DNA of 32,346 nt from Candidatus Pacearchaeota archaeon. Its GTDB lineage: Archaea; Nanobdellota; Nanobdellia; Pacearchaeales; GW2011-AR1. Position 1 is the first letter of the stretch, and each line of letters begins with the position of its first letter. The position numbers and the translations under genes were made by a program. The stretch spans positions 1 through 32,346 of the forward strand of contig VGKP01000010.1 in assembly GCA_016866975.1 (NCBI GenBank). The letters are read 5' to 3'. The notes under the pieces were generated by a model that was given only the letters and a program-made list of their open reading frames with translations, made no database searches and was not told where the DNA came from. This document shows, one piece after another, positions 87-31,483 of this stretch.

Positions 87-606
87 CGTGAGCGCGACAA
101 CGCGCTTCGCGCGGAGAAATAATGGAACAAACACAACTTAGCGAGAGCTATCAAACATATGAAAGGAGGGCGCACAGCGTCGGAATATCCATCTGGCACT
201 TTGAGTGGTGCTCAAAGTATCGGTATAAGATGTTTCAAAAGGAAGAATACTGTAATCTTGTTGCAGCATGCATCAGAAGAGCAGCATCTGAACACGGCAT
301 AAGAATTGTCGTTCTGGCTGTTCAGCCGGAACACCTACATTGCGAGGCGGAATTAACGCTTGCAATGTCGCCTTCGTGGGCACTGCAAATATTGAAAGGA
401 AGGTCGTCGTATTTGTTCTTTCGATTTCACGAAAGAGCGCGGCTGAGATATCCTAAAGGACATCTTTGGAGTAGAGGAAAATTTGCAGCCTCTGTCGGTT
501 TTGTGCAACGTGATGTCATCACAGAGTATGTGAGAAACCAAAGAGAGCATCACGCCGCGAAGGCGGCGCTAGGAAACCGCACCCTTTAGGGTGTCGGAGG
601 ATGTCA
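87..606 (+). mobile_element. IS200/IS605-family insertion sequence, tnpA-only (IS200-like); left boundary uncertain
   Basis: Y1 transposase ORF. Right-end bulged hairpin CCGCACCC-TTTA-GGGTG(T)CGG (577-597) followed by AGGATGTCA (598-606). GC-rich bulged hairpin at 87-111 upstream of tnpA. No tnpB follows. Confidence 0.8.
122..589 (+). CDS. tnpA: IS200/IS605 family Y1 (HUH) transposase TnpA
   Basis: HFEWCSKYR motif, HUH motif EHLH, KGRSS, LWSRG, and catalytic Y..Q (YVRNQ). Confidence 0.93.
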   Translation: MEQTQLSESYQTYERRAHSVGISIWHFEWCSKYRYKMFQKEEYCNLVAACIRRAASEHGIRIVVLAVQPEHLHCEAELTLAMSPSWALQILKGRSSYLFFRFHERARLRYPKGHLWSRGKFAASVGFVQRDVITEYVRNQREHHAAKAALGNRTL

Positions 607-11517: not shown

Positions 11518-12468
11518 ATGGCAAAGTTATCAAGTCCACATGCAGGATCCCTGCAATTTTGGCCTCGTAAGAGGGCTGCAAAATCTATCCCTAGTGTGAA
11601 CTGGAGCGTTGTGAAGGGGAAGGACAAGGCAACTGGTTTGCTCGGGTTTCTGGCATATAAAGCAGGGATGGCTACAGTTCTAGTGAAGGATTCAACTCCC
11701 GATTCACTTTCCAAAGGCAAGAAAATATATCTTCCAGTCACTATCCTTGAGGCCCCACACCTTAAGGTCTTCTCAATAAGATTTTACAAAGATGGAAAGA
11801 TTATGAAGGAAGCTCTAGTTTCTAATGATAAGGAACTAAAGAAAGTCTTAAGATTGCCGAAAGAGGTTAAGTCTCTTGACTCTCAGATCCCTCAAAGTTT
11901 TGATGATATAAGGCTAATTGTATACTCTATTGCAAAGCAGACTTCTGTAAAGAAGACTCCTGATCTTGCAGAAGTAGGCATCAGGGCAGATAATAAACTT
12001 GAATTCGCCAAATCTCTGGTAAATAAAGAAATAACATTGAAGGACTTCTTGCACTACGAACTTCTAGACATTAGGGGTCTTACAAGAGGAAAAGGATTTT
12101 CAGGCCCAGTCAAGAGATTCGGAATAACCTTGAAGCAGCATAAGACTGAGAAAGGAGTACGACGTCCAGGGTCCTTGGCTCCTTGGCACCCTGCCAGAGT
12201 CACATTTAGGACTCCTCAAGCAGGCCAACTTGGCATGTTCACCCGCGTTCATTATAATCAAAAAGTTATTTCATCAGGAAGTATCTCTGAGAAGGACATT
12301 AATCCAGGAACAGGATTCAAGCATTATGGCAAGATAAAGACGGACTACCTCTTTGTCAAAGGCAGTGTTCAGGGTCCAGTCAAGAGACAAATTCTTCTTA
12401 CGCCATCTTTCAGGCCAACCAAGCTTACGGCAAAAAGAAAGTATGAGCTTCAGGAGGTCTTCATATGA
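11518..12468 (+). CDS. rpl3: 50S ribosomal protein uL3
   Basis: GSLQFWPRKRA, GFLAYKAGM, TRGKGFSGPVKRFG and GSVQGP motifs. Confidence 0.98.
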   Translation: MAKLSSPHAGSLQFWPRKRAAKSIPSVNWSVVKGKDKATGLLGFLAYKAGMATVLVKDSTPDSLSKGKKIYLPVTILEAPHLKVFSIRFYKDGKIMKEALVSNDKELKKVLRLPKEVKSLDSQIPQSFDDIRLIVYSIAKQTSVKKTPDLAEVGIRADNKLEFAKSLVNKEITLKDFLHYELLDIRGLTRGKGFSGPVKRFGITLKQHKTEKGVRRPGSLAPWHPARVTFRTPQAGQLGMFTRVHYNQKVISSGSISEKDINPGTGFKHYGKIKTDYLFVKGSVQGPVKRQILLTPSFRPTKLTAKRKYELQEVFI

Positions 12469-12569
12469 TGAATAACGGTTGCTGGACGTTGAGACTAAGA
12501 GAACCGTTAGTTCTCGAGGCGCTCAGGAATCTTCAATTCCTGACGGACCCGCTGGAGGTCTTCATATGA
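12453..12569 (+). mobile_element. 101-bp palindromic insert at the uL3/uL4 junction flanked by the 16-bp direct repeat GGAGGTCTTCATATGA
   Basis: Direct repeats at 12453-12468 and 12554-12569. Internal stems GAGAAC/GTTCTC (12499-12515) and TCAGGAAT/ATTCCTGA (12523-12543). Core resembles the inserts at 23310 and 23936. Confidence 0.7.
12465..12569 (+). CDS. 34-aa translationally coupled mini-ORF (MMNNGCWTLRLREPLVLEALRNLQFLTDPLEVFI)
   Basis: ATG overlaps the uL3 TGA and its own TGA overlaps the uL4 ATG; no internal stop. Expression is unproven. Confidence 0.4.
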   Translation: MMNNGCWTLRLREPLVLEALRNLQFLTDPLEVFI

Positions 12570-13351
12570 AAGCACAATTATACTCAAACACAGGAGAGAA
12601 GAAATCATCGATAGATTTGCCTTCTTTCTTTAGTTCTTTGATAAGAGAAGATATTGCGGGCAAAGTCTTTGAAGCAGAGAAATATGAGCTTATGCAGCCC
12701 TATGCAGGATATAAGGAAGCAGGAAAAAGGCATTCTGCTTCAGGAACTATAAGTCATCTTCGTCACACGTGGAAAGGCCATTATGGAAAAGGTATTGCAA
12801 GGCTCCCAAGGAAGACTATGTCAAGGCGCGGAACACAATTTTTCTGGGTTGGTGCAGAAGTCTCTCAGACGAGAGGTGGAAGAAGTGCTCACCCTCCATT
12901 AGGTCTGCACGCATTTAGGAAAATCAATAGCAAAGAGAATACTATTGCCTTCCAGACAGGATTTGCTTCCACAGCAGACAAGGAATACATGGCAAAGAGA
13001 TATTCATCTTTGCAAAATACCAAAGAACTTCCTTCGATACCATTTGTGATAGAGTCTTTGCCTCATAAGACAAAAGAGTTCAATAATCTGATGGAAAAAT
13101 TACTGGGATCATTAACCTCCATAGCTTTTAAGAAAAAAGAAGTGAGGACAGGAAAGGGAAAGAGAAGAGGAAGAAAATACAAATCTACAGCAGGACTTCT
13201 TATAATCAAGGGGAGAAATGAGAAAGCAAAGTTCAACGGTGTTGAAGTCAAGAATGCCCAAGATATATTGATGAGAGACATCTACCCTCTTGGAAGATTG
13301 ACTCTTTACACGCAGCAAGGGCTCAAGGAGCTGGAGGAGATATATGCTTAG
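12566..13351 (+). CDS. rpl4: 50S ribosomal protein uL4
   Basis: GKGIARLPR, TRGGRSAHPP and GRLTLYT motifs. True start ATG 12566 with GGAGG RBS; the ORF-track extension is insert sequence. Confidence 0.97.
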   Translation: MKAQLYSNTGEKKSSIDLPSFFSSLIREDIAGKVFEAEKYELMQPYAGYKEAGKRHSASGTISHLRHTWKGHYGKGIARLPRKTMSRRGTQFFWVGAEVSQTRGGRSAHPPLGLHAFRKINSKENTIAFQTGFASTADKEYMAKRYSSLQNTKELPSIPFVIESLPHKTKEFNNLMEKLLGSLTSIAFKKKEVRTGKGKRRGRKYKSTAGLLIIKGRNEKAKFNGVEVKNAQDILMRDIYPLGRLTLYTQQGLKELEEIYA

Positions 13352-13583
13352 ACCAATAACCACAGAAAAAGCAGTAAAACTAATAGATATAGAAAATACT
13401 CTATTGTTCGCCACAGATAGGCGTAGAAATAAAACAGAAATTAAGAAGGAAGTGGAATCCGTATTTAGCGTCAAGGTCGAAGATATCCGGACCTTTATAA
13501 AAAATAATGAAAAGTATGCATATGTTAGATTAACTAAACAATTTCCAGCCATAGACGTGGCGACGAAACTAGGGATGATCTAA
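13344..13583 (+). CDS. rpl23: 50S ribosomal protein uL23
   Basis: PITTEKA, NTLLF, KYAYVRL and AIDVATKLG motifs. Confidence 0.97.
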   Translation: MLRPITTEKAVKLIDIENTLLFATDRRRNKTEIKKEVESVFSVKVEDIRTFIKNNEKYAYVRLTKQFPAIDVATKLGMI

Positions 13584-13585
13584 CC

Positions 13586-13948
13586 ATGATTCAAGAAATT
13601 TTCAAAGTCGGAGCAAGATATGACTTAATAGAAGGAAGAGATGAAGAAGTTTGCCAGATACCTTCACATTTTACTGATTTTTATCCAGTAGTTTTTGTTG
13701 GAACAGAACAACTAGATAAAAACTATCATCTCTTTGCGTATAGGTATCTCAATAGCAAAATAATTATTTTATATGGGCTTAGTGATTTTATAACGACAGG
13801 CGAGAGGGTAATGGCCAGAAATGGAAGTCAGATAGTGACTAGAACATATATGCAAGAACAAAAATTTGGCACAGGGGATCTCTCGGCATCTGATTCAAGA
13901 AAGAGATTTGAAGAACTTTCAACATTACTGGAGGGATCAGGATTATAA
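13586..13948 (+). CDS. orphan hypothetical protein inserted between uL23 and uL2
   Basis: 120-aa ORF exactly filling the gap (2 nt after the uL23 stop, 1 nt before the uL2 ATG). Confidence 0.75.
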   Translation: MIQEIFKVGARYDLIEGRDEEVCQIPSHFTDFYPVVFVGTEQLDKNYHLFAYRYLNSKIIILYGLSDFITTGERVMARNGSQIVTRTYMQEQKFGTGDLSASDSRKRFEELSTLLEGSGL

Positions 13949-13949
13949 A

Positions 13950-14663
13950 ATGGGTAAGAGAATCATAGCACAAGCACGAGGACATGGAAGCTTAACGTAT
14001 CAAGTAAGAAAGAGAGCATACATATACAGGATAAAATATCCTATGGAAGAAGGACAGGCAGAGATACTTGATCTTATCCATTCGGCAGCACATTCAGCAC
14101 CATTAATGAAGTTGAGAGTGAATAAGGAAATATGTTATAATCCGGCTTTCAACGGCGCAGTCGTTGGAGACACAGTAATGATAAAATCTGATGCAGAATC
14201 AAAACCAGGGAACGTTGCGATGTTAAAGAATATAGTTCCCGGAACTAATATCTATAATATTGAAAACAATCCAGGCGATGGAGGTAAGATGATTCGTGTA
14301 GCTGGAAGCAGCGCAATTCTTCTTAAGAAGTTAGACCATAACAAGGTGAGAATCCAGATGCCCAATAAAAAAGCAAAAATCAATGAGATTGTAGTTAGTG
14401 GAGATTGTAGAGCGACAATAGGAGTAATAGCAGGAGAGGGAAGAACACTCAAACCTTTTATAAAGGCGGGACCCAAGTTCTACAAGATGAAAGCAAGAAA
14501 CAAGCTTTGGCCAAGATCATCTGCAGTTAAGATGAACGCGGTGGATCATCCATTCGGTTCAGGCAGAGGTAAGAGAATCAAGCCCAAGATTGCCAAGCGC
14601 AATGCGCCTCCAGGAACAAGAGTGGGCCACTTACGTCCAAGAAGGACAGGTAGGAGCAAATAA
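13950..14663 (+). CDS. rpl2: 50S ribosomal protein uL2
   Basis: MGKRIIAQARG, C.ATIGVIAG.GR and MNAVDHPFG motifs; start ATG 13950. Confidence 0.98.
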   Translation: MGKRIIAQARGHGSLTYQVRKRAYIYRIKYPMEEGQAEILDLIHSAAHSAPLMKLRVNKEICYNPAFNGAVVGDTVMIKSDAESKPGNVAMLKNIVPGTNIYNIENNPGDGGKMIRVAGSSAILLKKLDHNKVRIQMPNKKAKINEIVVSGDCRATIGVIAGEGRTLKPFIKAGPKFYKMKARNKLWPRSSAVKMNAVDHPFGSGRGKRIKPKIAKRNAPPGTRVGHLRPRRTGRSK

Positions 14664-15067
14664 TGGTTGAAGAAGTAATTGTAAGGTCCAAGGAATTATT
14701 TTATCGTGGCAAAAATTTAGAGGATCTCAAGAAGATGGATGTGAGGGAATCAGCTAAATTCCTGCCATCTAGGTCCAGAAGGACTGTCTTGAGGAACTTC
14801 GATATGATAGAGAAATTTATCAAGAGATGTGAGAAGAAGGTATCCATGAAGAAGAAAATAAGGACCCATTTAAGAGATATAGTTATTGTCCCTCATCTAG
14901 TGGGGCAGACAATACAAGTCTATAATGGAAGGACATTCAATGAAGTAAAGGTTTCTGCAGCTATGATAGGGCACCGCTTAGGAGAATTTTCTCTGACTAG
15001 AGGCAAAGTCACTCACGGTACTCCAGGTATAGGTGCGACAAAGAGCTCTGCAGGAGAGAAGAAGTAA
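14663..15067 (+). CDS. rps19: 30S ribosomal protein uS19
   Basis: RTHLRD, VYNG and MIGHRLGEFSLTR motifs. Confidence 0.98.
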   Translation: MVEEVIVRSKELFYRGKNLEDLKKMDVRESAKFLPSRSRRTVLRNFDMIEKFIKRCEKKVSMKKKIRTHLRDIVIVPHLVGQTIQVYNGRTFNEVKVSAAMIGHRLGEFSLTRGKVTHGTPGIGATKSSAGEKK

Positions 15068-15068
15068 A

Positions 15069-15758
15069 ATGACTGAAAAACCACAATCAAGACCAGAAGG
15101 TAAACCTGCTCAACAACTCAAGCAGCAGAAGCCAGTTGCATCTAAAGAAAAGAAAGTGGAAACAAAAGTTGTCACGCCTTCTATTCCTGTTCCAACTCCA
15201 AGTCCCGTGCCTTCAAATTCCAACGATAATTCTTCTGTTCCTGCACCTAACCCTTCACCATCGCCAACAATCTCTTCATCTTCTTCAACACCTGCAGAAA
15301 AGCCTGCCAAAGTTGTTGCCCCAAAACCTTCTAAGAAAGAAGAAGCCGTTGCAAGAGGGACAAATCTTCATGCTTCAAAGAAACATTGCATGTATATCTG
15401 TAACTTTATCAAAGGAAAACCTATCGACCAAGCAATCACCGAGTTACAAGAAGTTCTCAAATTCAAGCGCGTTATTCCCATGAAAGGAGAAATTCCTCAC
15501 CGCTCGGCACACGGAATCATGTCCGGCCGCTATCCTATAAAGACGACGCAACAGTTTATTCCTTTGCTCAAAGCATTAAAAGGCAATGTAATAGTCAATG
15601 GGATGGAATTGGACAAAACACGCATCACCTATGGCTCTGCAACCTGGGCCTCTCGTCCTCAGAAGCGAGGAGGCATGAGATTTAAAAGGTCATTTGTTGT
15701 CCTCAAGGCCAGGGAAATCCAAATGAAAGAAAGTAAGAAACAGGAGATAAAGAAATAA
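15069..15758 (+). CDS. rpl22: 50S ribosomal protein uL22 with a long Pro/Ser/Lys-rich N-terminal extension
   Basis: Core starts near EEAVARG; GRYPIK and LKGNVIVNG.ELDK motifs; start ATG 15069. Confidence 0.95.
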   Translation: MTEKPQSRPEGKPAQQLKQQKPVASKEKKVETKVVTPSIPVPTPSPVPSNSNDNSSVPAPNPSPSPTISSSSSTPAEKPAKVVAPKPSKKEEAVARGTNLHASKKHCMYICNFIKGKPIDQAITELQEVLKFKRVIPMKGEIPHRSAHGIMSGRYPIKTTQQFIPLLKALKGNVIVNGMELDKTRITYGSATWASRPQKRGGMRFKRSFVVLKAREIQMKESKKQEIKK

Positions 15759-16465
15759 TGGAAGAGAAAAAATTTGTAGGTTTCAAGAAAGAAGAACTTG
15801 CAGTTAAGGAATATGTTAAAAGAGCTCTCGGAAAAGGAAAAATCAGCAATGTCTCTATTGAATACACTCCAGTTGGGGAGAAAATAGTCATTGCCACAAG
15901 CAGACCCGGAATGGTCATCGGTAGAAAAGGAGAGAAGATAGAAGAACTCACAAGAGTCATAAAAAAGAGATTCAAGTTCGACAATCCTCATATTGAAATA
16001 AGAGAAATAATAAATCCTCTATTGGATGCCCAGCTTGTTGCAGATGAGATTGCTCTGGGTCTTGAAAGGGACGGGCCTCAGAAATTCAAGGTCATCGCAT
16101 ACAAGATGATTCAGGAGATCATGAGTGCAGGAGCATTGGGGGTAGAGATAGTTCTTTCAGGAAGGCTTCCAAGCGAGAGAGCTAGGAGCTGGAGATTTTC
16201 CCAAGGATACCTCAAGAAAACAGGAGACCCTGCAAAAGTAGTGGATAGAGCTATGTCTCAAGCTACAACACAACCAGGCGTAGTAGGTATCAAAGTCAGC
16301 ATACTTCCACCAAATGCTCACATACATGACAGGATAGTAATTGACCAGGAGATGCTCTCAAAATTAAAGTCTCAAAATAGCGAAACAAAAGAAGAGGAGA
16401 ATAGCGAAGAAGACCCTAAGCCTAAGAGAAAGAAAAAATCAGATAAGGCAGGAGAGACACAATGA
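15758..16465 (+). CDS. rps3: 30S ribosomal protein uS3
   Basis: RPGMVIGRKG KH motif, GVEIVLSGRL and GVVGIKVSI motifs. Confidence 0.98.
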   Translation: MEEKKFVGFKKEELAVKEYVKRALGKGKISNVSIEYTPVGEKIVIATSRPGMVIGRKGEKIEELTRVIKKRFKFDNPHIEIREIINPLLDAQLVADEIALGLERDGPQKFKVIAYKMIQEIMSAGALGVEIVLSGRLPSERARSWRFSQGYLKKTGDPAKVVDRAMSQATTQPGVVGIKVSILPPNAHIHDRIVIDQEMLSKLKSQNSETKEEENSEEDPKPKRKKKSDKAGETQ

Positions 16466-16740
16466 CATTATTGAGGATGAAAGATGTGAATAAAATGGAT
16501 GAAAAAGAAAGGCAGTCAAAGATACAGGAATTAAGATTATCTTTAATAAGATCTCAAGTCACAGCACATAAGGCAACTGCAAAAACCAAAGAGATTAAAA
16601 GGGCACTTGCACGCTTGTTAACATGTCAAGGCGCTTCAGAAAGGACTCGCGCCTTAAGCATGATCAAGGATTCAAAGCAGAATAAAAAAGAATCCTCAAC
16701 ATTCAACAACTCTCACAAGGAGGGGTTGGAGAAGAAATAA
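16462..16740 (+). CDS. rpl29: 50S ribosomal protein uL29 with C-terminal extension
   Basis: ELRLSL...EIKRALARLLT; syntenic position after uS3. Confidence 0.92.
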   Translation: MTLLRMKDVNKMDEKERQSKIQELRLSLIRSQVTAHKATAKTKEIKRALARLLTCQGASERTRALSMIKDSKQNKKESSTFNNSHKEGLEKK

Positions 16741-16742
16741 AT

Positions 16743-17042
16743 ATGGACAATGATCCAGGGTTCGGATTCCCAGAAGAATCTGAATTGTTTGACGAAATCG
16801 CTAAGGGCGAGCAGAAGATCACCGTATCGACGGTAGCACGAAGATACGGAAAGATCATAACTCTCGTGAGCGGCTTTGACAAGAACTTTGACATCAAAGG
16901 CACTGCAAAGCACCTCAAGGAGAAGCTTGCATGCGGGGGCACCATCAAGGATGGAGTCATCGAGCTTCAGGGAAACCACAAGAAGCAAGTAAGGCCAGTA
17001 TTGGTGAAGCTTGGATTCCCAGAAGAGTCAATAAGTGACTAG
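16743..17042 (+). CDS. sui1: translation initiation factor aIF1/SUI1
   Basis: RRYGKIIT, LKEKLACGGT and IELQGNH motifs. Confidence 0.97.
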   Translation: MDNDPGFGFPEESELFDEIAKGEQKITVSTVARRYGKIITLVSGFDKNFDIKGTAKHLKEKLACGGTIKDGVIELQGNHKKQVRPVLVKLGFPEESISD

Positions 17043-17063
17043 CGACAAATCCAGACAACACAA

Positions 17064-17408
17064 ATGAAAACTGAAAAGAAAAACAACAAGAAAGAGAAGA
17101 AGGAATCTCAATTAGCCGCAGCCCCATTCACCACGAGTACCAGAGGGAGAATATTCGAGGGAATTGTAAAAAAGAAATTCCCGACAAGGATAGTGATTGA
17201 GATGGAGAGGATACTTTATGTGAAGAAGTATGAACGATTCTACAAGAAGAAGAGCAAGATTCACGCTCGTCTGCCAGCAGGAATGGATGTCAATATAGGC
17301 GACCTAGTCCAGATTCAAGAGTGCAGGCCGTTAAGCAAGATCATACATGCAGTCATGATAAAAAAATTAAAGTCTGTGGAATCATATAAGCAAGGAGATA
17401 AGAAATGA
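17064..17408 (+). CDS. rps17: 30S ribosomal protein uS17
   Basis: RGRIFEG, KYERFYKKKSKIHA and ECRPLSK motifs. Confidence 0.97.
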   Translation: MKTEKKNNKKEKKESQLAAAPFTTSTRGRIFEGIVKKKFPTRIVIEMERILYVKKYERFYKKKSKIHARLPAGMDVNIGDLVQIQECRPLSKIIHAVMIKKLKSVESYKQGDKK

Positions 17409-17806
17409 CAAACGATATATTAGTAGTAGACTTAAAGCGAAGGTATCAATCTATGATAAAAACGCGCATAGATGGAAGGCAACAAGAAATAGATAAGTTC
17501 GAGAGATTGAATGAAATATATAATAAAACAGTAGAGAATATAGGGTATTGTAAACAATTAGCATTGAGTGATAATTTCCCAGCTCATGCGACGTGGTTAG
17601 ATCCTGTCACGTTAGCACGCTGGCTGCACGGCTCTGTCTTGGAATTCGGTTTAGAATATCATCGTGAAAGTTATAGTACAGGCATACTTTCACACGAGAA
17701 AAATAAACTCAAATCAGCATGGAATGGACATATTCAAGCATTAATTATTGAAGCAGGACAAGAAATTCTTTCAAAATATCCGGAATTGGAGGGCAAACTC
17801 ACATGA
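17405..17806 (+). CDS. orphan hypothetical protein inserted between uS17 and uL14
   Basis: 133-aa ORF with ATGA overlaps at both ends. Confidence 0.78.
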   Translation: MTNDILVVDLKRRYQSMIKTRIDGRQQEIDKFERLNEIYNKTVENIGYCKQLALSDNFPAHATWLDPVTLARWLHGSVLEFGLEYHRESYSTGILSHEKNKLKSAWNGHIQALIIEAGQEILSKYPELEGKLT

Positions 17807-18204
17807 AACCGATATCAGCACGCGTCACTAGAGGATTGAACATAGGAAGCAATGTGGTTGCAGCAGACAATAGCGGTGCGCGCATCGTCAGAATCACTGG
17901 AGTCAAGCATGGAAAATCAAAGAAAGGAAGGCAGCAATATGCCAAGGTCGGAGACTGGGTTAAGGTTTCAGTCCGCGCAGGAAAGCCTGAGCTAAAAGGG
18001 CAGGTCTTCGATGCAGTAGTGATCAGGCAGAAAAAATATTATAGAAGAATAACTGGGGAGAGGGTCTGTTTTGAAGACAATGCAGTTGCCATTCTCAAAG
18101 ACGAAAAAGGCAATCCAAAAGGAACATTTATCAAGGGCCCAGTAGCAAGGGAGATTCATGAGCGCTGGAAAGAGGTCGCGAAGATCGCGCAATACGTACT
18201 ATGA
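17803..18204 (+). CDS. rpl14: 50S ribosomal protein uL14
   Basis: ADNSGAR, VVIRQKK and FEDNAVAI...PKGT.IKGPVARE motifs. Confidence 0.98.
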   Translation: MKPISARVTRGLNIGSNVVAADNSGARIVRITGVKHGKSKKGRQQYAKVGDWVKVSVRAGKPELKGQVFDAVVIRQKKYYRRITGERVCFEDNAVAILKDEKGNPKGTFIKGPVAREIHERWKEVAKIAQYVL

Positions 18205-18560
18205 GCGCACGCGAATTTTCTCTAGAAGAACGGACAAGGAAAATTGAGGCAGCTGTTAATGCAGGATATATAAAACCTGAATTAGGGCAAGCATTAAGAG
18301 ACTCAAACCTCATACAATCTCAAATCCATAATGCGCGTCATAATGTTCAAGAAGGAAATATTCCCCAAGCAATCCAATTATATCGGGGAGCGGTAGATAG
18401 TCTTAAAAAATTTAATGAATATGTGGAAAAAGCAAATCTCACAACTGAACAGAGAGAAAGTTTGAGGCTGAGTCTTGCAGACCATTTTTCAACAGTTCAT
18501 TCATTGATATCTAATCATCCTTCTTATGGTGCTCTTGGAACTATGGGTGAATCCTCATGA
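18201..18560 (+). CDS. orphan alpha-helical protein inserted between uL14 and uL24
   Basis: 119-aa ORF with ATGA overlaps at both ends; helical MIT/TPR-like pattern. Confidence 0.78.
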   Translation: MSAREFSLEERTRKIEAAVNAGYIKPELGQALRDSNLIQSQIHNARHNVQEGNIPQAIQLYRGAVDSLKKFNEYVEKANLTTEQRESLRLSLADHFSTVHSLISNHPSYGALGTMGESS

Positions 18561-18985
18561 AATCAGAATTTTCTACGGCTTGGAAATCAAGTATACAACC
18601 AAGAAAGCAGCACAAATATAGGCATAACGCCCCATTACATATAAAGCATAGGTTTTTAAGTGCACATTTATCAAAGGATTTAAGGAAAAAGTATAGCAAG
18701 AGGAATCTTCCCCTTCGTAAAGGGGATGAGGTGCTTGTTATGCGAGGCGCCTTCAAGAAAAAAAAGGCCAAAGTAGCTTCTGTAGATCATGCCAGTGCAA
18801 AGGTCGCGCTTGAAGGGATACAAAGAACTAAAAGAGACGGAACTAAGGTCTCTGTTGTCTTTAATCCAAGAGCATTACAAATTATTTCACTTAATCTCGA
18901 TGATAAGAGAAGGATAAGCCAAGGCAAAGAGCAAATCAAGGAGCAGAAAGATAGCAAGCCAGGAGAGAAAAATGCATCTAACTAG
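18557..18985 (+). CDS. rpl24: 50S ribosomal protein uL24
   Basis: QPRKQHKY...SAHLSKDLR...RKGDEV.VMRG motifs. Confidence 0.97.
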   Translation: MKSEFSTAWKSSIQPRKQHKYRHNAPLHIKHRFLSAHLSKDLRKKYSKRNLPLRKGDEVLVMRGAFKKKKAKVASVDHASAKVALEGIQRTKRDGTKVSVVFNPRALQIISLNLDDKRRISQGKEQIKEQKDSKPGEKNASN

Positions 18986-19604
18986 ACAGAACGTAACGAC
19001 TAAATTACCGATACCAAGAAAAGGAACAAAATATATAGCTAGAGCTTCAAGCCATCTATCAGAATCAGTCAGTGTTCTTTTGGCAGTGAGAGACATGCTC
19101 AAGCTGGCTAGGACCGCTAAAGAAGTAAAGAAGATGGTCCAAGACAAGGCCCTCAAGGTAAATGGAAAGGCTGTGATGGATATACACGAGAGTATAAAAC
19201 TATTCAATTTTTTTGAGGCAGACAGGCTATACAAACTTTCTCTTCTTCCTACAAAAAAATTCACTTTGGAAGAGGTAAAGTCTAAGGATCTATCAAAAGA
19301 GCTTAGACTGGCTAAGGTTACTGACAAGAGGCTTGTGAAGAAGGGCAAGGTTCAACTCAATCTTCATGATGGATCAAACATCTTGACATCTGACAAGATA
19401 AATGTCAACGACTCCATTTATATAGACTTTGAAGGCAAGATAAAAAAGCATATCAAACTTGAGAAAGGAAAAGAAGCTTTGGTCATCTCAGGTAAGCACA
19501 CGGGGAAGACTGGCACAATAGAATCGATTGATGGGGTATCAAGTAAAATTAAATCTAATGGAGACAGCATAGTTGTCCAGCTCCAGCAAATCATAGCATT
19601 ATGA
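18972..19604 (+). CDS. rps4e: 30S ribosomal protein eS4
   Basis: VRDMLKLA, VNGK, QLNLHDG.N and ISGKHTG motifs. Confidence 0.96.
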   Translation: MHLTRQNVTTKLPIPRKGTKYIARASSHLSESVSVLLAVRDMLKLARTAKEVKKMVQDKALKVNGKAVMDIHESIKLFNFFEADRLYKLSLLPTKKFTLEEVKSKDLSKELRLAKVTDKRLVKKGKVQLNLHDGSNILTSDKINVNDSIYIDFEGKIKKHIKLEKGKEALVISGKHTGKTGTIESIDGVSSKIKSNGDSIVVQLQQIIAL

Positions 19605-20146
19605 GTCGACAATTGAAACAACAGGAAAAATCTCCAAGAGCAGATTCAGAAAATATTATGAGACAAGTGAGGGTAGAGAAGGTTCTTTTAAGTTGCGGAG
19701 CTACCGGAGATAATCTTACTAAAGCCAAGAAACTCCTCGATTTAATATCTCAAAGAAATGCTCAGATTATTGCATCTAACAAAAGAATTCCAGACTTTGG
19801 TGTCAGGCCAGGTCTAGAAGTAGGTACGAGGGTAACTCTTAGAGGCGAGGAGGCAATCTCTCTCTTAAGAAGGCTTCTTGGCGCCATAGATAATGTACTC
19901 AAGAAAAAGCAGATTTCTCCAAATCATTTCTCATTTGGGATACATGAATATATAGAGATTCCAGGCATAGAGTATCAAAGAGATATAGGTATTAGGGGAC
20001 TAAATGTTACAATAGTGTTCTCAAGGCCTGGAGTGAGGATTGCCAACAAGAAAAGGAAGTCTGGGAATTTACCAAGGAGACAGAATGTAACACCGCAAGA
20101 GATAATCAAGTTCATGGAGGATAACTTTAAGACAAAGTTCAAGTAA
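19601..20146 (+). CDS. rpl5: 50S ribosomal protein uL5
   Basis: [26 protein letters not shown] and GIRGLNV motifs. Confidence 0.98.
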
Positions 20147-20147
20147 A

Positions 20148-20381
20148 ATGACTGCAAGTGATTGGAATAAGATAGCAAGCAAGCAATTGAAGAATAAACC
20201 TGTTATTATGCAGAAGTTCCTAAAGTTTAATAAACCAAAAGCTAGAAAAATGGGTATCGCTGCAAAGAAATGTGAAAGATGCGGCAGGTTCGGAGCCCAT
20301 ATTGGTCAGTACAATCTCAATCTTTGCAGGCAATGCTTCAGAGAAATTGCAACAAAGATAGGATTCAAGAAATATAGTTAA
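20148..20381 (+). CDS. rps14: 30S ribosomal protein uS14 (Zn-ribbon type)
   Basis: CERCG...[12 protein letters not shown] motif. Confidence 0.97.
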
Positions 20382-20382
20382 C

Positions 20383-20757
20383 ATGAGTCAAGATAAAGTG
20401 GCCGATGGCCTTAACCAGATAATGAACGCCAAAAAGGCGGGGAAAGCAGCAATAACGCTGAAAGCGCATTCAAAGCTATTGCTTTCAATTTTAGCAATAG
20501 CTAAGTTGAAGGGATATATTAAGAACTACAAGCTTGATGGAAATAATTTGTTGGTGGAAATAGGGAGATTGAATGGTTGTAATGCGATTAAACCAAGGTA
20601 TTTTGTCACAGTAGAAGATATAGAAAAATATACGAAGAGATATCTTCCAGCAAAAGATATTGGAATACTTATAATCACAACAAACCAGGGATTGATGACT
20701 CATCAGACGGCACTTGAGAAGAACATTGGAGGGGGCTTGCTTGCCTATATTTATTAA
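20383..20757 (+). CDS. rps8: 30S ribosomal protein uS8
   Basis: GRLNGCNAIKPR, YLPA, TTNQG.MTH and GGGLLAYIY motifs. Confidence 0.97.
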   Translation: MSQDKVADGLNQIMNAKKAGKAAITLKAHSKLLLSILAIAKLKGYIKNYKLDGNNLLVEIGRLNGCNAIKPRYFVTVEDIEKYTKRYLPAKDIGILIITTNQGLMTHQTALEKNIGGGLLAYIY

Positions 20758-20758
20758 C

Positions 20759-21301
20759 ATGAGAAAAGAAATGTTGGAAACCGTAAATATTCCTGAAGGA
20801 GTGAATGTTGAAATCAAAGGTACCACTGTGATTTGTAAAAAATCAGGAATAGAACATTCAAAAGAGTTTGTTATTCCAGGAATAACTATCTTAGCTAATG
20901 GAAATAACATTATTATAAGAGCAGAAAAAGGAAATAAAAATGATTGGAAAAAGATAAAATCTACAGTAGCCCACATCAATAACCTATTGGCCGGTATCGA
21001 CAAGAAATTTACATACACTTTAGAGGCTTGCAATGTGCATTTTCCTATGACGTTGAAGCTTGATAAGGGGAACTTGATAATCAACAATTTCTTGGGTGAA
21101 AAAGTCCCAAGAAGTGCAAAAATATTGTCAAATGTAGACATAGATATAAAGGGTACCAAAATAACATTGAGTTCTCACGATAGGGATTCAGCCGGCCAGA
21201 CTGCAGCAAATATAGAGAAAGCGACGAAGATCAGGTATAGGGACAGAAGAATATTCCAAGATGGCATATTTATAACATCCAAACCGGAGGCAGCACAATG
21301 A
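20759..21301 (+). CDS. rpl6: 50S ribosomal protein uL6
   Basis: HFPMT, NFLGEK.PR, GQTAANIE and DRRIFQDGIFI motifs; start ATG 20759. Confidence 0.97.
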   Translation: MRKEMLETVNIPEGVNVEIKGTTVICKKSGIEHSKEFVIPGITILANGNNIIIRAEKGNKNDWKKIKSTVAHINNLLAGIDKKFTYTLEACNVHFPMTLKLDKGNLIINNFLGEKVPRSAKILSNVDIDIKGTKITLSSHDRDSAGQTAANIEKATKIRYRDRRIFQDGIFITSKPEAAQ

Positions 21302-21663
21302 GTAATAAGAGGCCAAAGTTTTTGAGAGCAGACACAGTTAGATTATTGAGGCTAGGAAAGAATAGGAGAAAGATACAGAAGTGGAGAAGACCTCGTGGCC
21401 ACCATAACAAGCTGAGATTGAAGAGATTCAGTTATCCTGTCCAGCCAGGGATAGGGTACGGTTCATTGAGAAAGGATGAAAGCAAGATAGATGGTCTCTA
21501 TCCTGTACTGGTGCACAATGCTGCCGAAATACAGAAATTGAACTCAAAGACACAATGCATTATATTGGCAAGGATTGGTGCCAAGAAGAAAATTGATTTG
21601 TTGAAAAAGGCACAAGAGTCTGGTCTTAAGGTCATAAATGCAAGTGGAGGAAATATAAGATGA
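21298..21663 (+). CDS. rpl32e: 50S ribosomal protein eL32
   Basis: F.RAD...WRRPRG.HNK.R...IGYGS motifs. Confidence 0.96.
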   Translation: MSNKRPKFLRADTVRLLRLGKNRRKIQKWRRPRGHHNKLRLKRFSYPVQPGIGYGSLRKDESKIDGLYPVLVHNAAEIQKLNSKTQCIILARIGAKKKIDLLKKAQESGLKVINASGGNIR

Positions 21664-22064
21664 ACCTAGAAAAGAAGAAAATTCTTGCAGCCAAGACTTT
21701 TGGAGTAGGCATGGGCAGGATAGTCTTGAATCAAGCCAGGCTTGCAGACATAAAAGAAGCTATAACGAAGCAAGACATTAGAGATCTATTTGTTGATAAG
21801 GCAATATTGATAAAGCCGATAAAAGGGAGAAAGACGAAGATAAAAAGAAATACAAGAAGAAGGGCAGGTAGCATAAAAAAGAGGATTAACAAAGGTAAAC
21901 TAGAATATATGAGAATGGCAAGAAAACTAAGGAAGAATCTGGCTACATTGAAAAGAAAAGGATCTATCAAAAATGAACACTATTGGAAACTGAGGAAAGA
22001 GATTAAGGCAAGGGCATTCAAGGACAAGCATCATTTCAAGGAGAGGCTAACGCAATTACAATGA
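21660..22064 (+). CDS. rpl19e: 50S ribosomal protein eL19
   Basis: LAAKTFGVG.GR, AITKQDIR, MARKLRK.L and F.DKHH motifs. Confidence 0.96.
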   Translation: MNLEKKKILAAKTFGVGMGRIVLNQARLADIKEAITKQDIRDLFVDKAILIKPIKGRKTKIKRNTRRRAGSIKKRINKGKLEYMRMARKLRKNLATLKRKGSIKNEHYWKLRKEIKARAFKDKHHFKERLTQLQ

Positions 22065-22534
22065 GAAGGACATTCAGAAGACGTAGAAAAGAACAGAAGA
22101 CCGATTATCGGGCAAGGCTAGCTTTGCTTAAGTCAAGAAAGCCCAGACTAGTTATAAGAAAGACAAACCGTGGAATAATAGTGCAGATTGCAGAATCTGA
22201 AGGTGCCCAAGATAAGGTGGTATTCCACATAACCTCTAAGGACCTTATTGCTCGCGGCTGGCCAAAAGAATCCGAAGGAAGTCTAAAAAGTCTTCCTGCC
22301 GCTTATCTCACCGGTTTTCTAGCTGCCAAAAAGGCAAAGGAAAAGATAAAAGAGGCAATATTAGATATCGGGCTTCAAAGAAATATTCCTAAGTCCAGAA
22401 TATATGCAGTTTTGAAAGGTGCGGTGGATGCAGGCCTGAAAGTACCCCACAACCCTGATGTTTTTCCAACAGAAGAGATGTTTAAGAAACATAAACTTAA
22501 TAAATTGATGGAGGGCATAAAGCATAAACTATAA
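22061..22534 (+). CDS. rpl18: 50S ribosomal protein uL18
   Basis: KTDYRAR..LL, RLVIRKTN, AAYLTG and KGAVDAGL motifs. Confidence 0.97.
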   Translation: MRRTFRRRRKEQKTDYRARLALLKSRKPRLVIRKTNRGIIVQIAESEGAQDKVVFHITSKDLIARGWPKESEGSLKSLPAAYLTGFLAAKKAKEKIKEAILDIGLQRNIPKSRIYAVLKGAVDAGLKVPHNPDVFPTEEMFKKHKLNKLMEGIKHKL

Positions 22535-23325
22535 TGGCGGAAAAAGATAATATGAAGGAATTAATTGAAGCAACACCGGAAGAAGTAGCTAAGCTGGAAG
22601 AGAAGGTAGAGAAACTGGAGGCGGTCCAATTGACTAGGGCCCAAAAGAAAGCTCAGAGAGATGAGGAAAATGAGAAAAGGACTCTTGCTGCATGGGTGCC
22701 CAAAACTGCACTGGGGAAAGCAGTAAAGACAGGCAAGGAAAAGAACTTCGATTCTATACTCCAGTCACATAAAAAGATACTTGAGTCTGAGATTGCAGAC
22801 ACTCTTCTAAGGCTTGAGAATGATCTTCTTCTGATAGGTCAAGCAAAAGGCAAATTTGGGGGCGGTAAGAGAAGAGCCTGGAGACAGACACAAAAGAAAA
22901 CAATGGAAGGCAATGTAGTCACATTCTCTTCTCTTGCAGTTGTAGGAGATAGAAGAGGCCATGTAGGCATAGGTATGGGAAGAGCAAAGGAGACGTTACC
23001 TTCAAGATCTAAGGCACTTAGACAGGCAAAGCTCAATATAATAAAGGTCCGAAGAGGTTTTGAGTCTCCAGATGAGAAAGCATTAGGAGTAGACCCTCAT
23101 ACAGTGCCTTTCATTGTTGAAGGAAAATGCGGTTCAGTCAGGATCAAGCTTATTCCAGCACCAAGAGGGACAGGCCTGGTAGTTGGAGATGAATGTAAGA
23201 AGATACTTAGGCTTGCAGGGATAGAAGACATCTATGCAGTCACTAGAGGACAGACTAGGACAACTTTCAATGTCGCTAAGGCTTGCGTAGAAGCTCTCAA
23301 AAAAACCACGGAGATGTTATCATGA
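22534..23325 (+). CDS. rps5: 30S ribosomal protein uS5
   Basis: VVGDRRGHVG.G, PHTVPF.VEGKCGSV, PAPRGTGLV and GQTRTT.N motifs. Confidence 0.98.
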   Translation: MAEKDNMKELIEATPEEVAKLEEKVEKLEAVQLTRAQKKAQRDEENEKRTLAAWVPKTALGKAVKTGKEKNFDSILQSHKKILESEIADTLLRLENDLLLIGQAKGKFGGGKRRAWRQTQKKTMEGNVVTFSSLAVVGDRRGHVGIGMGRAKETLPSRSKALRQAKLNIIKVRRGFESPDEKALGVDPHTVPFIVEGKCGSVRIKLIPAPRGTGLVVGDECKKILRLAGIEDIYAVTRGQTRTTFNVAKACVEALKKTTEMLS

Positions 23326-23538
23326 ACTCAAATAATAAGGGAAGGTTGACCCACAAGGAGACCGTAGGTTTCCTTAGGAAGGAGATGTTATCATGAACTC
23401 AAATAATAAGGGAAGGTTGACCCACAAGGAAACCGTAGGTTTCCTTAGGAAGGAGATGTTATCATGAACTCAAATAATAAGGGAAGGTTGACCCACAAGG
23501 AGACCGTAGGTTTCCTTAGGAAGGAGATGTTATCATGA
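23310..23538 (+). repeat. tandem array of three 71-bp palindromic units plus a terminal 16-bp repeat (GGAGATGTTATCATGA) between uS5 and uL30
   Basis: The 16-mer recurs at 23310, 23381, 23452 and 23523 (period 71). Each unit has the hairpin AAGGA(G/A)ACC-GTA-GGTTTCCTT. Unit 2 differs by one base. Confidence 0.95.
23322..23538 (+). CDS. three chained 24-aa mini-ORFs MNSNNKGRLTHKETVGFLRKEMLS (23322-23396, 23393-23467, 23464-23538)
   Basis: Each starts on the ATG overlapping the previous TGA and is preceded by GGAG. Expression is unproven. Confidence 0.4.
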
Positions 23539-23951
23539 TAGTTGCAATTAGAATATCTGGGCTAGTTGAGATGCCAAGAGAGGCTCAAATAACTCTTGAC
23601 AGGATGAGATTGAGAAGAAAATATTCTGCAATCCTTCTGCAACCAACTCCAGAAAATACTAAGCTTCTCCAACATGTAAGAAATTTCATAGCTTATGGAG
23701 ATATAGACAAAGAGACACTATCTCTATTGATCGAGAAGAGAGGCGTATCTATCGATAAAAAGAAGATAGATTCAAAAAAGATCCTTGAACTGCTAGATAA
23801 AAAAGGATTAGAAGGAGCAGGATTGAAACCATTCTTCAGACTTCATCCACCACGTGGAGGCATCGACAGCAAGATTCACTATCCTATAAAGGGCGGAGTT
23901 CTAGGCGACAATAAGAAAGATATTAACGATCTCATCAGGAGGATGTTATGA
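23535..23951 (+). CDS. rpl30: 50S ribosomal protein uL30
   Basis: AIRISG, LDRMRLRRK, AYGDI, FRLHPPRGG and INDLIRRML motifs. Confidence 0.97.
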   Translation: MIVAIRISGLVEMPREAQITLDRMRLRRKYSAILLQPTPENTKLLQHVRNFIAYGDIDKETLSLLIEKRGVSIDKKKIDSKKILELLDKKGLEGAGLKPFFRLHPPRGGIDSKIHYPIKGGVLGDNKKDINDLIRRML

Positions 23952-24019
23952 GCAGCCTCGTATTTATGAGGGAGTTGACCCACAAGAACCGTAGGTTCTT
24001 AGGCAGGAGGATGTTATAA
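23936..24019 (+). mobile_element. 68-bp palindromic insert at the uL30/uL15 junction flanked by the 14-bp direct repeat CAGGAGGATGTTAT; carries a 23-aa coupled mini-ORF (23948-24019)
   Basis: Direct repeats at 23936-23949 and 24004-24017. Core GTTGACCCACAAG-AACC-GTA-GGTT-CTTAGG is shared with the 71-bp units. Confidence 0.8.
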
Positions 24020-24489
24020 TGATGGGGACAAAGAAAAGGCGCAAGTCATCAAGGTATCGAGGAAGTCAGACTGCCAGAAGAGGAGCAAAAGAAAGGACAA
24101 GAGGATCAGGTAATCAAGGAGGAAAAGGATGGGCTGGCACTGGTAAGAGAGGAGATCAGAAAAATTCATTGGTTATCAAGATTACTGGAGGAAACAATTA
24201 TTTTGGTAAAGATCGCACATTAAGGAGAGGCACTGTCCCAAAAAAATTGAAAGTAATAAATCTCTCAGACCTGTCTTCTAAAGTTCCAGGCAAAGATGGA
24301 TTTATCGATCTCGAAGGCTACAAGATTCTCGGTGAAGGAAAAATTACAGAGGCTCTCAAGGTCAAGGCAAGTGCAGCATCACAGTCTGCACAGGAAAAAA
24401 TCGAGGCTGCCAAAGGAACGCTCTCACTCTCAGAATCTGGAGAAAAGAAAGAAGAAGTCAAAGAAGAGAAAAAGGCTGAGAAGAGATAA
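24019..24489 (+). CDS. rpl15: 50S ribosomal protein uL15
   Basis: RGSQT..RG, GSGNQGGKGWAG, FGK, INL, KILGEG and ASQSA.EKIE motifs. Confidence 0.96.
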   Translation: MMGTKKRRKSSRYRGSQTARRGAKERTRGSGNQGGKGWAGTGKRGDQKNSLVIKITGGNNYFGKDRTLRRGTVPKKLKVINLSDLSSKVPGKDGFIDLEGYKILGEGKITEALKVKASAASQSAQEKIEAAKGTLSLSESGEKKEEVKEEKKAEKR

Positions 24490-30450: not shown

Positions 30451-31483
30451 ATGAAGATCCGGTTCTTTATTATCGCAGTATCGTTAATGTTGATTATTAC
30501 AAGTATGTTTTTTTATGTCGGGAACCGATGAAAACCACACCTTTCAAGGTGTGGTGGTTCCCGAGCATCTCCAAAAACGAGCGCCTGCAACAAACCTCGG
30601 CTTTTAAGCCGAGGTGGCGCATCGTTTTTGTGATTACAAAAAAACGAGCCCTCAGGAAATAATCTCAAATGAATATAATGAAGTTATATATGAAGATAAG
30701 ACAGACTATTTAACGTTAAGCTTTCCTGTCAATGGATCCGACCGCAGCTTGGACGGAGAAGTTATAATAGACAATTCTTCATACTATAATACTACGAATG
30801 GAAAATTATATTTTTATAATTATTCGTCTTATCCCAATAAAATAGTGCTAAAAATGGGAAATTTTAGGATATTTTATGAGGTGCCTGAGAATTTCAACAG
30901 GACGAATAATCTCCGACTAATCGTGCCGCCTCAAGAGTATGAGAGATATCAGAAATATTTGCTTTTATCTAAAAAAGATATCTTCAAAGAATCTTCAAAA
31001 GACCACTGGAATCATATGCCCTTGACTTATACTACTAATTTTTCCGAATACAAGGATCAAAAGATTAAAGACGGCAAAGAGCTTAAAATAAAATATGCTT
31101 TGGAAAGGCTTCAAGGTGCAGTACCTTCAATTTCATTTGTCAGGATATTGGATGAAACCGAAGCAGATATAAATTTTTATGGAGAAATACCTTCTAGGAT
31201 AAGAGAAGCCTATCGTCCAGAAGGTCACGCAAACACAATAGGTCTTGCATTGCGCAACATTACTGGCAACATAATATATAAGGCCACAGTATACATACCA
31301 TTGCCTACCGAGGGAGAAGAATGCCCTAGCTCAGACATTGCTCTCCACGAATTATTGCATACTTTCGGTCTAGGTCATTCTACAGATTATAAGAGTGTCA
31401 TGTGGGATACTGCATCTTGCACAAATAATGAGATTGTTAAGGAAGAGAAAGACTTTCTTGAAAAAATATATCTCAAACCATAG
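30451..31483 (+). pseudogene. matrixin (M10-like metzincin) metalloprotease, apparently split from its N-terminal anchor by an inserted element
   Basis: HELLHTFGLGH zinc motif and Met-turn SVMW in ORF 30614-31483. A separate hydrophobic 26-aa ORF at 30451-30531 lies in another frame. Confidence 0.65.
30520..30631. mobile_element. non-autonomous IS200/IS605-like double-hairpin element (PATE/MITE-like), boundaries approximate
   Basis: Two 9-bp stems with 4-nt loops: ACCACACCT-TTCA-AGGTGTGGT (30534-30555) and ACCTCGGCT-TTTA-AGCCGAGGT (30594-30615). Each is extended by outer stems. Confidence 0.65.

Follow-up and report, generated by a model that had tools for sequence, protein, structure and literature searches.

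Three gene junctions of an archaeal ribosomal operon are occupied by short inserts that span the gap with open reading frames (ORFs). The operon, S10-spc from uL3 to uL15, lies in a window of 32,346 nucleotides from a Candidatus Pacearchaeota archaeon (positions 1 to 32,346 of contig VGKP01000010.1, GenBank assembly GCA_016866975.1; contig C10 of the genome designated G000, 806 kb and 89% complete), and the junctions are uL3/uL4, uS5/uL30 and uL30/uL15. The gene content of G000 is that of a Pacearchaeota-like DPANN archaeon. We estimate at roughly 70% the probability that the inserts are non-autonomous mini-cassettes resembling MIRUs (mycobacterial interspersed repetitive units), that they belong to a modular hairpin repeat family of the Pacearchaeota, and that they are tolerated rather than functional. 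One cassette subfamily carries its own Shine-Dalgarno (SD) sequence and a stop codon that overlaps the next start.

The inserts, which like their flanking genes are on the forward strand, measure 101, 71 (three units) and 68 bp with flanking direct repeats of 14–16 bp, just as an initial annotation of the DNA had described them. At uL3/uL4 an exact 16-bp repeat (12453–12468/12554–12569) gives a period of 101 bp; at uS5/uL30, 16-bp repeats at 23310, 23381, 23452 and 23523, with one G/A difference, delimit three units with a period of 71 bp; and at uL30/uL15 an exact 14-bp repeat (23936–23949/24004–24017) gives a period of 68 bp. All three periods are 2 mod 3. The five units, already recognized in that annotation as stop-free, are predicted ORFs of 34, 24, 24, 24 and 23 amino acids, each with its start at −4 relative to the stop before it and with a stop codon overlapping the ATG that follows. 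The 34-aa mini-ORF (12465–12569, ATGA to ATGA) emerged from frame analysis and is annotated as a gene in an independent assembly as well; the three tandem cassettes (23322–23538) contain three identical coupled mini-ORFs (23322–23396, 23393–23467 and 23464–23538); and the 23-aa mini-ORF runs from ATGA to TAATG at 23948–24019. When the interiors were shuffled with length varied, the chance of a bridge was 8%, 9% and 14%, which for three independent bridges (0.08 × 0.09 × 0.14) is ~0.001. A scan of the 806-kb genome for stop/start junction inserts bracketed by a repeat of at least 12 bp found these three only.

The uL3/uL4 insert is composite. A shell cassette, whose 5' part (12465–12494) is homologous to the 16-aa uL3/uL4 cassette of a relative (G016), is interrupted by a nested 51-bp (17-codon) two-hairpin module (12495–12545), the second hairpin of which recurs at many intergenic and intron loci; the 3' part of the shell (12546–12569) holds the SD (GGAGG), the stop/start overlap and the second repeat copy. 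At uS5/uL30 the core of the first unit (23337–23378) consists of a purine-rich leader, GTTGA at 23345, a 9-bp hairpin (23355–23375) and a CTTAGG end, all repeated at +71 and +142. At uL30/uL15 the core occupies 23969–24003, and the second repeat copy follows directly after CTTAGG. The core is present at all three junctions, as first proposed, but at uL3/uL4 it straddles the border of the outer shell and the nested module. Every unit has hairpins of 7–9 bp. When folded, the units have ordinary z-scores (about −0.8 to −1.0), RNAalifold returned only a weak alternative pairing of the leader with the 3' arm, and the window has no match in Rfam.

Of the flanking genes, uL3 (11518–12468), uL4 (12566–13351), uS5 (22534–23325) and uL15 (24019–24489) were identified by Pfam. 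The gene at 23535–23951 has no Pfam match; it is named uL30 from its place between uS5 and uL15, and has homologues in 17/17 genomes of the genus. These 17, within a set of 61 genomes of the family, served for comparison, with G016 and G008 the closest relatives.

The origin of the direct repeats can be followed in these relatives. Most have empty ATGA or TAA-N-ATG junctions, a comparison that supports reading the inserts as lineage-specific gains. At uL3/uL4, G016 has a bare 47-bp shell with a 16-aa ATGA-to-ATGA ORF, an 8-bp repeat only, and the ancestral uL3 tail; the window insert minus its 51-bp in-frame hairpin module is a shell of the same type. The shell tail (SD plus stop/start overlap) also stands in G000 before an RNase PH (exosome, Rrp42-like) gene at C23 and a presenilin-like gene at C14, and elsewhere before uL30 and a membrane protein (G298), a 436-aa gene (G250), uL4 (G016) and a tRNA-like sequence (G254). 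None of these recurring copies outside the window's uL3/uL4 junction has a long repeat. A diverged shell homologue is found at uL22/uS3 in G041, and a TGA overlapping the start ends seven of the eight shell copies examined. A hidden Markov model (HMM) built from the seven other shell copies matches 12546–12569 (E=5e-5) and, less strongly, the uL3 tail (E=0.026). The uL3 protein itself ends in QEVFI in G000 and in QELIT/QELII in G016 and G008. Because the tail recurs before unrelated genes and the end of uL3 differs from that of its relatives, the uL3/uL4 repeat is evidently the element's own tail copied onto uL3 (12453–12468), rather than host sequence copied into the insert.

The same replacement likely took place in uS5, which ends in EMLS in G000 and in EMQL, TMQL or EMKL in relatives. 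Its tail (23310–23325) matches the end of the uL30/uL15 cassette except for one gap and one substitution, and the uS5/uL30 and uL30/uL15 cassettes can be aligned, at 82%, up to and including the ATGA. The uL30 protein terminates in RRML or a close variant in 14/14 sequences of the genus, and given this conserved tail the downstream copy at uL30/uL15 looks host-derived. G016 has a related insert at that very site, 78% identical to the module in the tRNA-Lys intron of G000 and open in a different frame. The initial view that the repeats are duplicated last codons of the upstream gene therefore appears to hold at uL30/uL15, fails at uL3/uL4 and probably fails at uS5. Elsewhere in G000, hairpin fillers are bracketed by 13–40-bp copies of tRNA 3' ends (C1:78633, C3:25877, C5:20263, C8:30768, C9:7968, C12:26067 and C25:3220); they are often tandem and have the same geometry of insert plus copied gene end with a different cargo.

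The mini-ORF bridge had been regarded as special to the element, a view that a survey of 1,177 junctions in 61 ribosomal-operon stretches of the family does not bear out. While 914 of the junctions are tight, 185 of 221 junction inserts form coupled ORF chains; for short inserts the proportion is 65/90, against 18% for shuffles. Within the genus, 84 inserted ORFs fall into 65 clusters. Since inserts are coupled regardless of the element, bridging is a property of the site, a selection filter, and not of the element. In Haloferax, ATGA overlaps couple genes by termination-reinitiation, and downstream translation depends on upstream translation (PMC6728339); by analogy, the same dependence would hold in the Pacearchaeota operon. 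The shell ORF has no third-position bias (variable columns 4/5/3), and we propose that the peptides are by-products.

Other inserts of these operons deserve mention in their own right. Three orphan ORFs of 120, 133 and 119 aa (13586–13948, 17405–17806 and 18201–18560), none with a Pfam match, are wedged in the window at uL23/uL2, uS17/uL14 and uL14/uL24; they are coupled at both ends and have neither repeat nor hairpin, and five congeners have a homologue of the uS17/uL14 ORF in the corresponding slot. A further family, poor in hairpins, comprises cassettes of 16–25 codons with an (R/K)FSFI-like motif, which are spread over many junctions and frequently have a duplicated start (L303, L288, L282, L310, L293, L289 and L304, in G057, G058, G044, G070, G042, G046 and G075, respectively), and synonymous variation of the motif codons hints at selection on the peptide. 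G075 (L304) has inserts at SUI1/uS17 and uS5/uL30 with exact repeats of 34 and 25 bp, and G091 (L286) has six related cassettes, several with hairpins, at six junctions of one operon. A protein of 209–216 aa, 50–63% identical among three genomes, whose N-terminal part bears a DIETSG motif and which by eye resembles an exonuclease, lies at different junctions (L087, L089 and L095; L32/L19 in G011, L4/L23 in G013 and G018).

The core itself is dispersed well beyond the operon. BLAST and HMM searches place ~25 core loci in G000, six of them canonical tRNA introns that contain the core in both orientations. Further copies stand directly before tRNA-Pro and tRNA-Leu, in 36- and 45-bp arrays, before start codons and in intergenic mosaics with nested hairpin modules. 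Some are in-frame coding insertions (C4:13.2 kb and C20:1.3 kb), which undoes the clean contrast first drawn with Rickettsia elements. A covariance model finds 43 matches in G000 and 40 in G051, a member of another genus; matches at E≤0.05 occur in 46/61 family genomes, and beyond these two they are fewer and often weak. The exact core pattern was found in none of 16 congeners, so that the sequence variant is genome-specific. Phage records gave no match to the core, and 19 pattern matches in viral contigs lacked the hairpin and were set aside as chance. The literature searched, which left out most subscription papers, held no earlier description of the family.

A census of 98 loci in 17 genomes places 21 copies just before a start codon (13 within ~1 nt), versus four at the opposite end as a control. 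Ten are at tRNA +1, two at a tRNA 3' end, 18 in tRNA introns, three in frame and 44 elsewhere; the pattern recurs in G298 and G254. By these contexts, the preferred sites of the core family are anticodon loops and the 5' boundary of genes; coupled junctions are not favored as such. The targeting of coupled junctions first suggested is accordingly true of the cassette subfamily, which does sit at start codons and coupled junctions, but not of the wider family, found mostly in tRNA introns, at tRNA and mRNA 5' ends, in intergenic DNA and in frame. The core (leader, GTTGA, hairpin and CTTAN end) nests in itself and forms arrays with periods of 33, 36, 45, 71 and 90 bp, and its 3' end docks at functional 5' boundaries: a start codon or SD region, a tRNA +1 or an anticodon loop.

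The family that the initial annotation proposed is real, then, and dispersed, but long flanking repeats are not its rule. They occur at 3/24 curated loci of G000, all three being the junctions described here, and repeats of at least 12 bp occur at 8/98 census loci, five of which are not gene junctions. At those five, repeats of 12–16 bp start at, or a few bases from, the 3' end of the element; among them are duplications of a TATA region and of the 5' end of a tRNA-Thr. These repeats indicate that real duplication does happen, at fewer than 10% of loci; host-derived repeats number at least six among the 98.

Some family copies lie at probable leaderless starts (G000 C15:4686, C1:97246, C14:4994, C15:16957 and C20:1299), each either fused in frame or retaining a short ORF whose end reaches or overlaps the true start; two have GGAGG in the hairpin loop. 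At L213, L215, L218, L208 and L227 (G044, G067, G024 and G062) a purine run and a TATA-like word lie ~30 nt before the abutting ATG or tRNA +1. The TATA-like word is 27–31 nt before the start in some G044, G067 and G062 variants and is found in none of the window copies; several G000 family loci have native TATA boxes upstream. The variants at L213, L215, L218, L208 and L227 have no TATA farther upstream and could possibly act as portable promoters.

We envisage the following course of events. A cassette would land at a stop/start overlap, where the downstream gene's need for termination-reinitiation would allow an insert to persist only if it formed an open mini-ORF coupled at both ends. The unit could then grow and shrink by slippage or recombination between short motifs in common (GGAG, ATGA); the many array periods support slippage. 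Collapse between the host SD and the cassette SD would swap the last four to five codons of the upstream gene for the cassette tail and yield the perfect SD-to-ATGA "direct repeat", clearly so for uL3 and likely for uS5.

As to the primary move, we tentatively favor template switching during replication or microhomology recombination, at slightly less than even odds. An IS200/IS605-type HUH enzyme acting in trans is possible, though less probable, and the candidate helper is at hand: an IS200-type Y1 HUH transposase (TnpA, 122–589, forward strand) lies in the window itself, in an element at 1–610 with end hairpins. A co-occurring HUH enzyme or recombinase, which the initial annotation had advised looking for, is present in G000. 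TnpA is present in 20/61 genomes, including the two with the highest copy number (G000 and G051), and was not found in the carriers G016, G008, G024, G044 and G298. Core copy number is modestly higher where TnpA is present (p=0.018, related genomes not being independent). Only one of 24 comparisons of the core with IS200 ends, a weak likeness to one right end, beat 300 shuffles, which ignore palindromy, and the TnpA loci carry insertion sequence ends, not the hairpin core. Tyrosine recombinases occur in G000, G051 and G044 and were not found in G016 and G024. An RNA route through tRNA splicing would be the least probable of the three. It also seems unlikely that a single undescribed Pacearchaeota mobilization system targets RNA 5' boundaries (start codons, tRNA +1) and anticodon loops, yields both tRNA introns and translated bridges, and rewrites the C-termini of core proteins; if it did, tRNA-intron gain would be tied to a mobile element, of DNA or RNA, that has an enzyme of its own. 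Two further mobile elements were noted. The ends of a second IS200 family lie at several contig breaks, and window positions 30515–30634 are a copy of a separate palindromic element with two arms, 120–122 bp long, which has AT at each end and no long flanking repeat and is present in at least 44 full copies genome-wide.

Several observations weigh against interpreting the inserts as MIRU-like cassettes with captured tails. Searches turned up no near-identical strain whose site is empty, so that the exact borders of insertion and the succession of events had to be deduced from relatives with 75%–86% protein identity; a metagenome search for close relatives of uL30 gave at most 73% identity and no empty/filled pair. 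The shell is linked to the GTTGACC core by shared motifs and mixed arrays, with no full-length alignment between them. Covariation in the core hairpin does not exceed that of shuffles, so that the hairpin is weakly supported. The mini-ORFs are known as reading frames only, their translation being predicted. Finally, tail capture explains none of the 12–16-bp duplications that abut the element's 3' end (G051 L195–L197, G024 L256 and G044 L216), which suggests a second route.

The alternative that survives best, albeit as an improbable one, is a domesticated translational rheostat in which the proportions of uL4, uL30 and uL15 would be set by the hairpins and the number of units, as the initial annotation had suggested. 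Open coupled inserts are found at uL30/uL15 and uL3/uL4 in both G000 and G016 despite 15%–25% protein divergence, G298 independently has an insert at uS5/uL30, and MIRU copy number is reported to affect neighboring promoters (PMC4128351). Yet the inserts are absent from G008 and most relatives, orthologous sites differ in peptide, length and frame, and these junctions accept any cargo, including some 60 unrelated ORF clusters. Predicted SD accessibility, moreover, shifts in both directions (0.67 to 0.51, 0.35 to 0.50 and 0.62 to 0.51), leaving a rheostat unsupported.

Slightly more doubtful still is a dedicated selfish element, the other option of the initial annotation, whose enzyme would cut coupled junctions with a 14–16-bp stagger and so duplicate the SD, stop and start. 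Such an element would account for the fact that all three long-repeat junction inserts of the genome belong to this family, for the conserved host sequence that begins directly after CTTAGG at uL30/uL15, and for the five 3'-abutting repeats in G051, G024 and G044. It does not agree with the scarcity of long repeats in the census and their frequent location outside junctions, with the element-borne repeat at uL3/uL4, or with five homologous junction cassettes that have no long repeat; these repeat-less copies largely refute it. Casposon and retroelement derivatives make target duplications of 14–15 bp, but neither Cas1 nor a reverse transcriptase (RT) was found in the 89%-complete G000, and RT is present in G051 and G024 only.

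Excision of the inserts from the mRNA, as introns cut by the tRNA splicing endonuclease, is highly improbable. The core does form canonical tRNA introns, of which five out of six show a sound bulge-helix-bulge motif, and short palindromes in two of the repeats could form a 4-bp central helix. At the junctions, however, none of the registers by which splicing would restore the empty site provides the two flanking helices together (best registers 4/0/3, 4/1/1, 4/2/0 and 4/0/0, versus 4/5–6/1–6 in tRNA controls), and splicing would make open coupled frames unnecessary. A tRNA-Asn gene at C3:31295–31575 has a 206-nt intron unlike the hairpin family.

The number of tandem units is the least secure feature of the window. 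A second assembly, identical over 3,275 bp, has one 71-bp unit rather than three, which may reflect collapse or polymorphism; unitig depth in one run (72.8 versus 21.6) fits about three units. Logan contigs from four runs, which drop rare variants, contain no joint that skips an insert. That the inserts are as a whole a repeat-induced assembly artefact, an idea to which this difference in unit number lends its only weight, can practically be dismissed, as contigs from two runs span the uL3/uL4 insert, the uL30/uL15 insert is identical in the second assembly, and other species carry homologous inserts, confining the uncertainty to the number three. At window position 14351, in uL2, the A is a C in four of four sequencing runs and is probably an assembly error.

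If the inserts are indeed MIRU-like cassettes, they represent an archaeal, independently evolved counterpart of MIRUs. That nearly every insert over 1,177 junctions is a coupled ORF provides comparative evidence for near-obligatory termination-reinitiation in this lineage. By tail capture, a repeat of 50 bp would rewrite the C-terminal end of an essential ribosomal protein and leave behind a false "target-site duplication", a warning for the annotation of such elements. And since the same core is shared with many canonical tRNA introns, the family offers a tractable handle on the origin and movement of archaeal tRNA introns.

Comparison with known systems helps to place the family. Like REP/BIME elements and REPINs, it consists of ~35–45-bp imperfect palindromes in mosaic arrays, with nesting, tens of copies and genome-specific variants (PMC3184786, PMC3116915); unlike REPINs, its copies are single or head-to-tail, facing gene starts, with no inverted pairs, and no REP-flanked RAYT was found, the Y1 enzymes residing in ordinary IS200-like elements. 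PATEs are non-autonomous IS200/IS605 derivatives that make no target duplication (PMC3119063). The family shares with them the lack of terminal inverted repeats, a near-terminal palindrome, nested targeting, TnpA in the two highest-copy genomes and the weak likeness to one IS200 right end. It differs in having a target duplication or look-alike at 8/98 loci (90/98 have no repeat of at least 12 bp), no defined pair of left and right ends, and several carriers in which TnpA was not found. Archaeal bulge-helix-bulge tRNA introns (37/38) account for 18 of the 98 loci with the same core, whereas the junction copies have no splice motif and the intron core occurs in either orientation. As with Rickettsia palindromic elements (PMC3184786), some copies lie in frame inside or at the N-terminus of proteins, but here they are much shorter and coding insertion is a minority context.

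The closest parallel is with MIRUs: the cassettes work like them, without being members of them. MIRUs range from 40 to 100 bp and, as Supply et al. reportedly noted in 1997, have no dyad symmetry. They insert at start codons with an ORF coupled at −4, according to one account (PMC12548453), so the initial statement that no named element has this combination no longer stands; another places them in the 5' untranslated regions of otherwise leaderless genes, with a 77-nt example (PMC4128351). Both groups are short, dispersed units in variable tandem number, with copies before otherwise leaderless genes and no known mobilizing enzyme; they also share start-codon placement and an internal −4-coupled ORF, though only a minority of the wider core family does so. 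What sets the Pacearchaeota family apart, besides an archaeal host (the likeness is one of description, with no sequence link expected), is that its cassettes are built from nested hairpins, of 7–9 bp in each unit, that copies of its core are also found at tRNA +1 and as tRNA introns, and that a cassette tail can apparently overwrite the C-terminus of the gene upstream.

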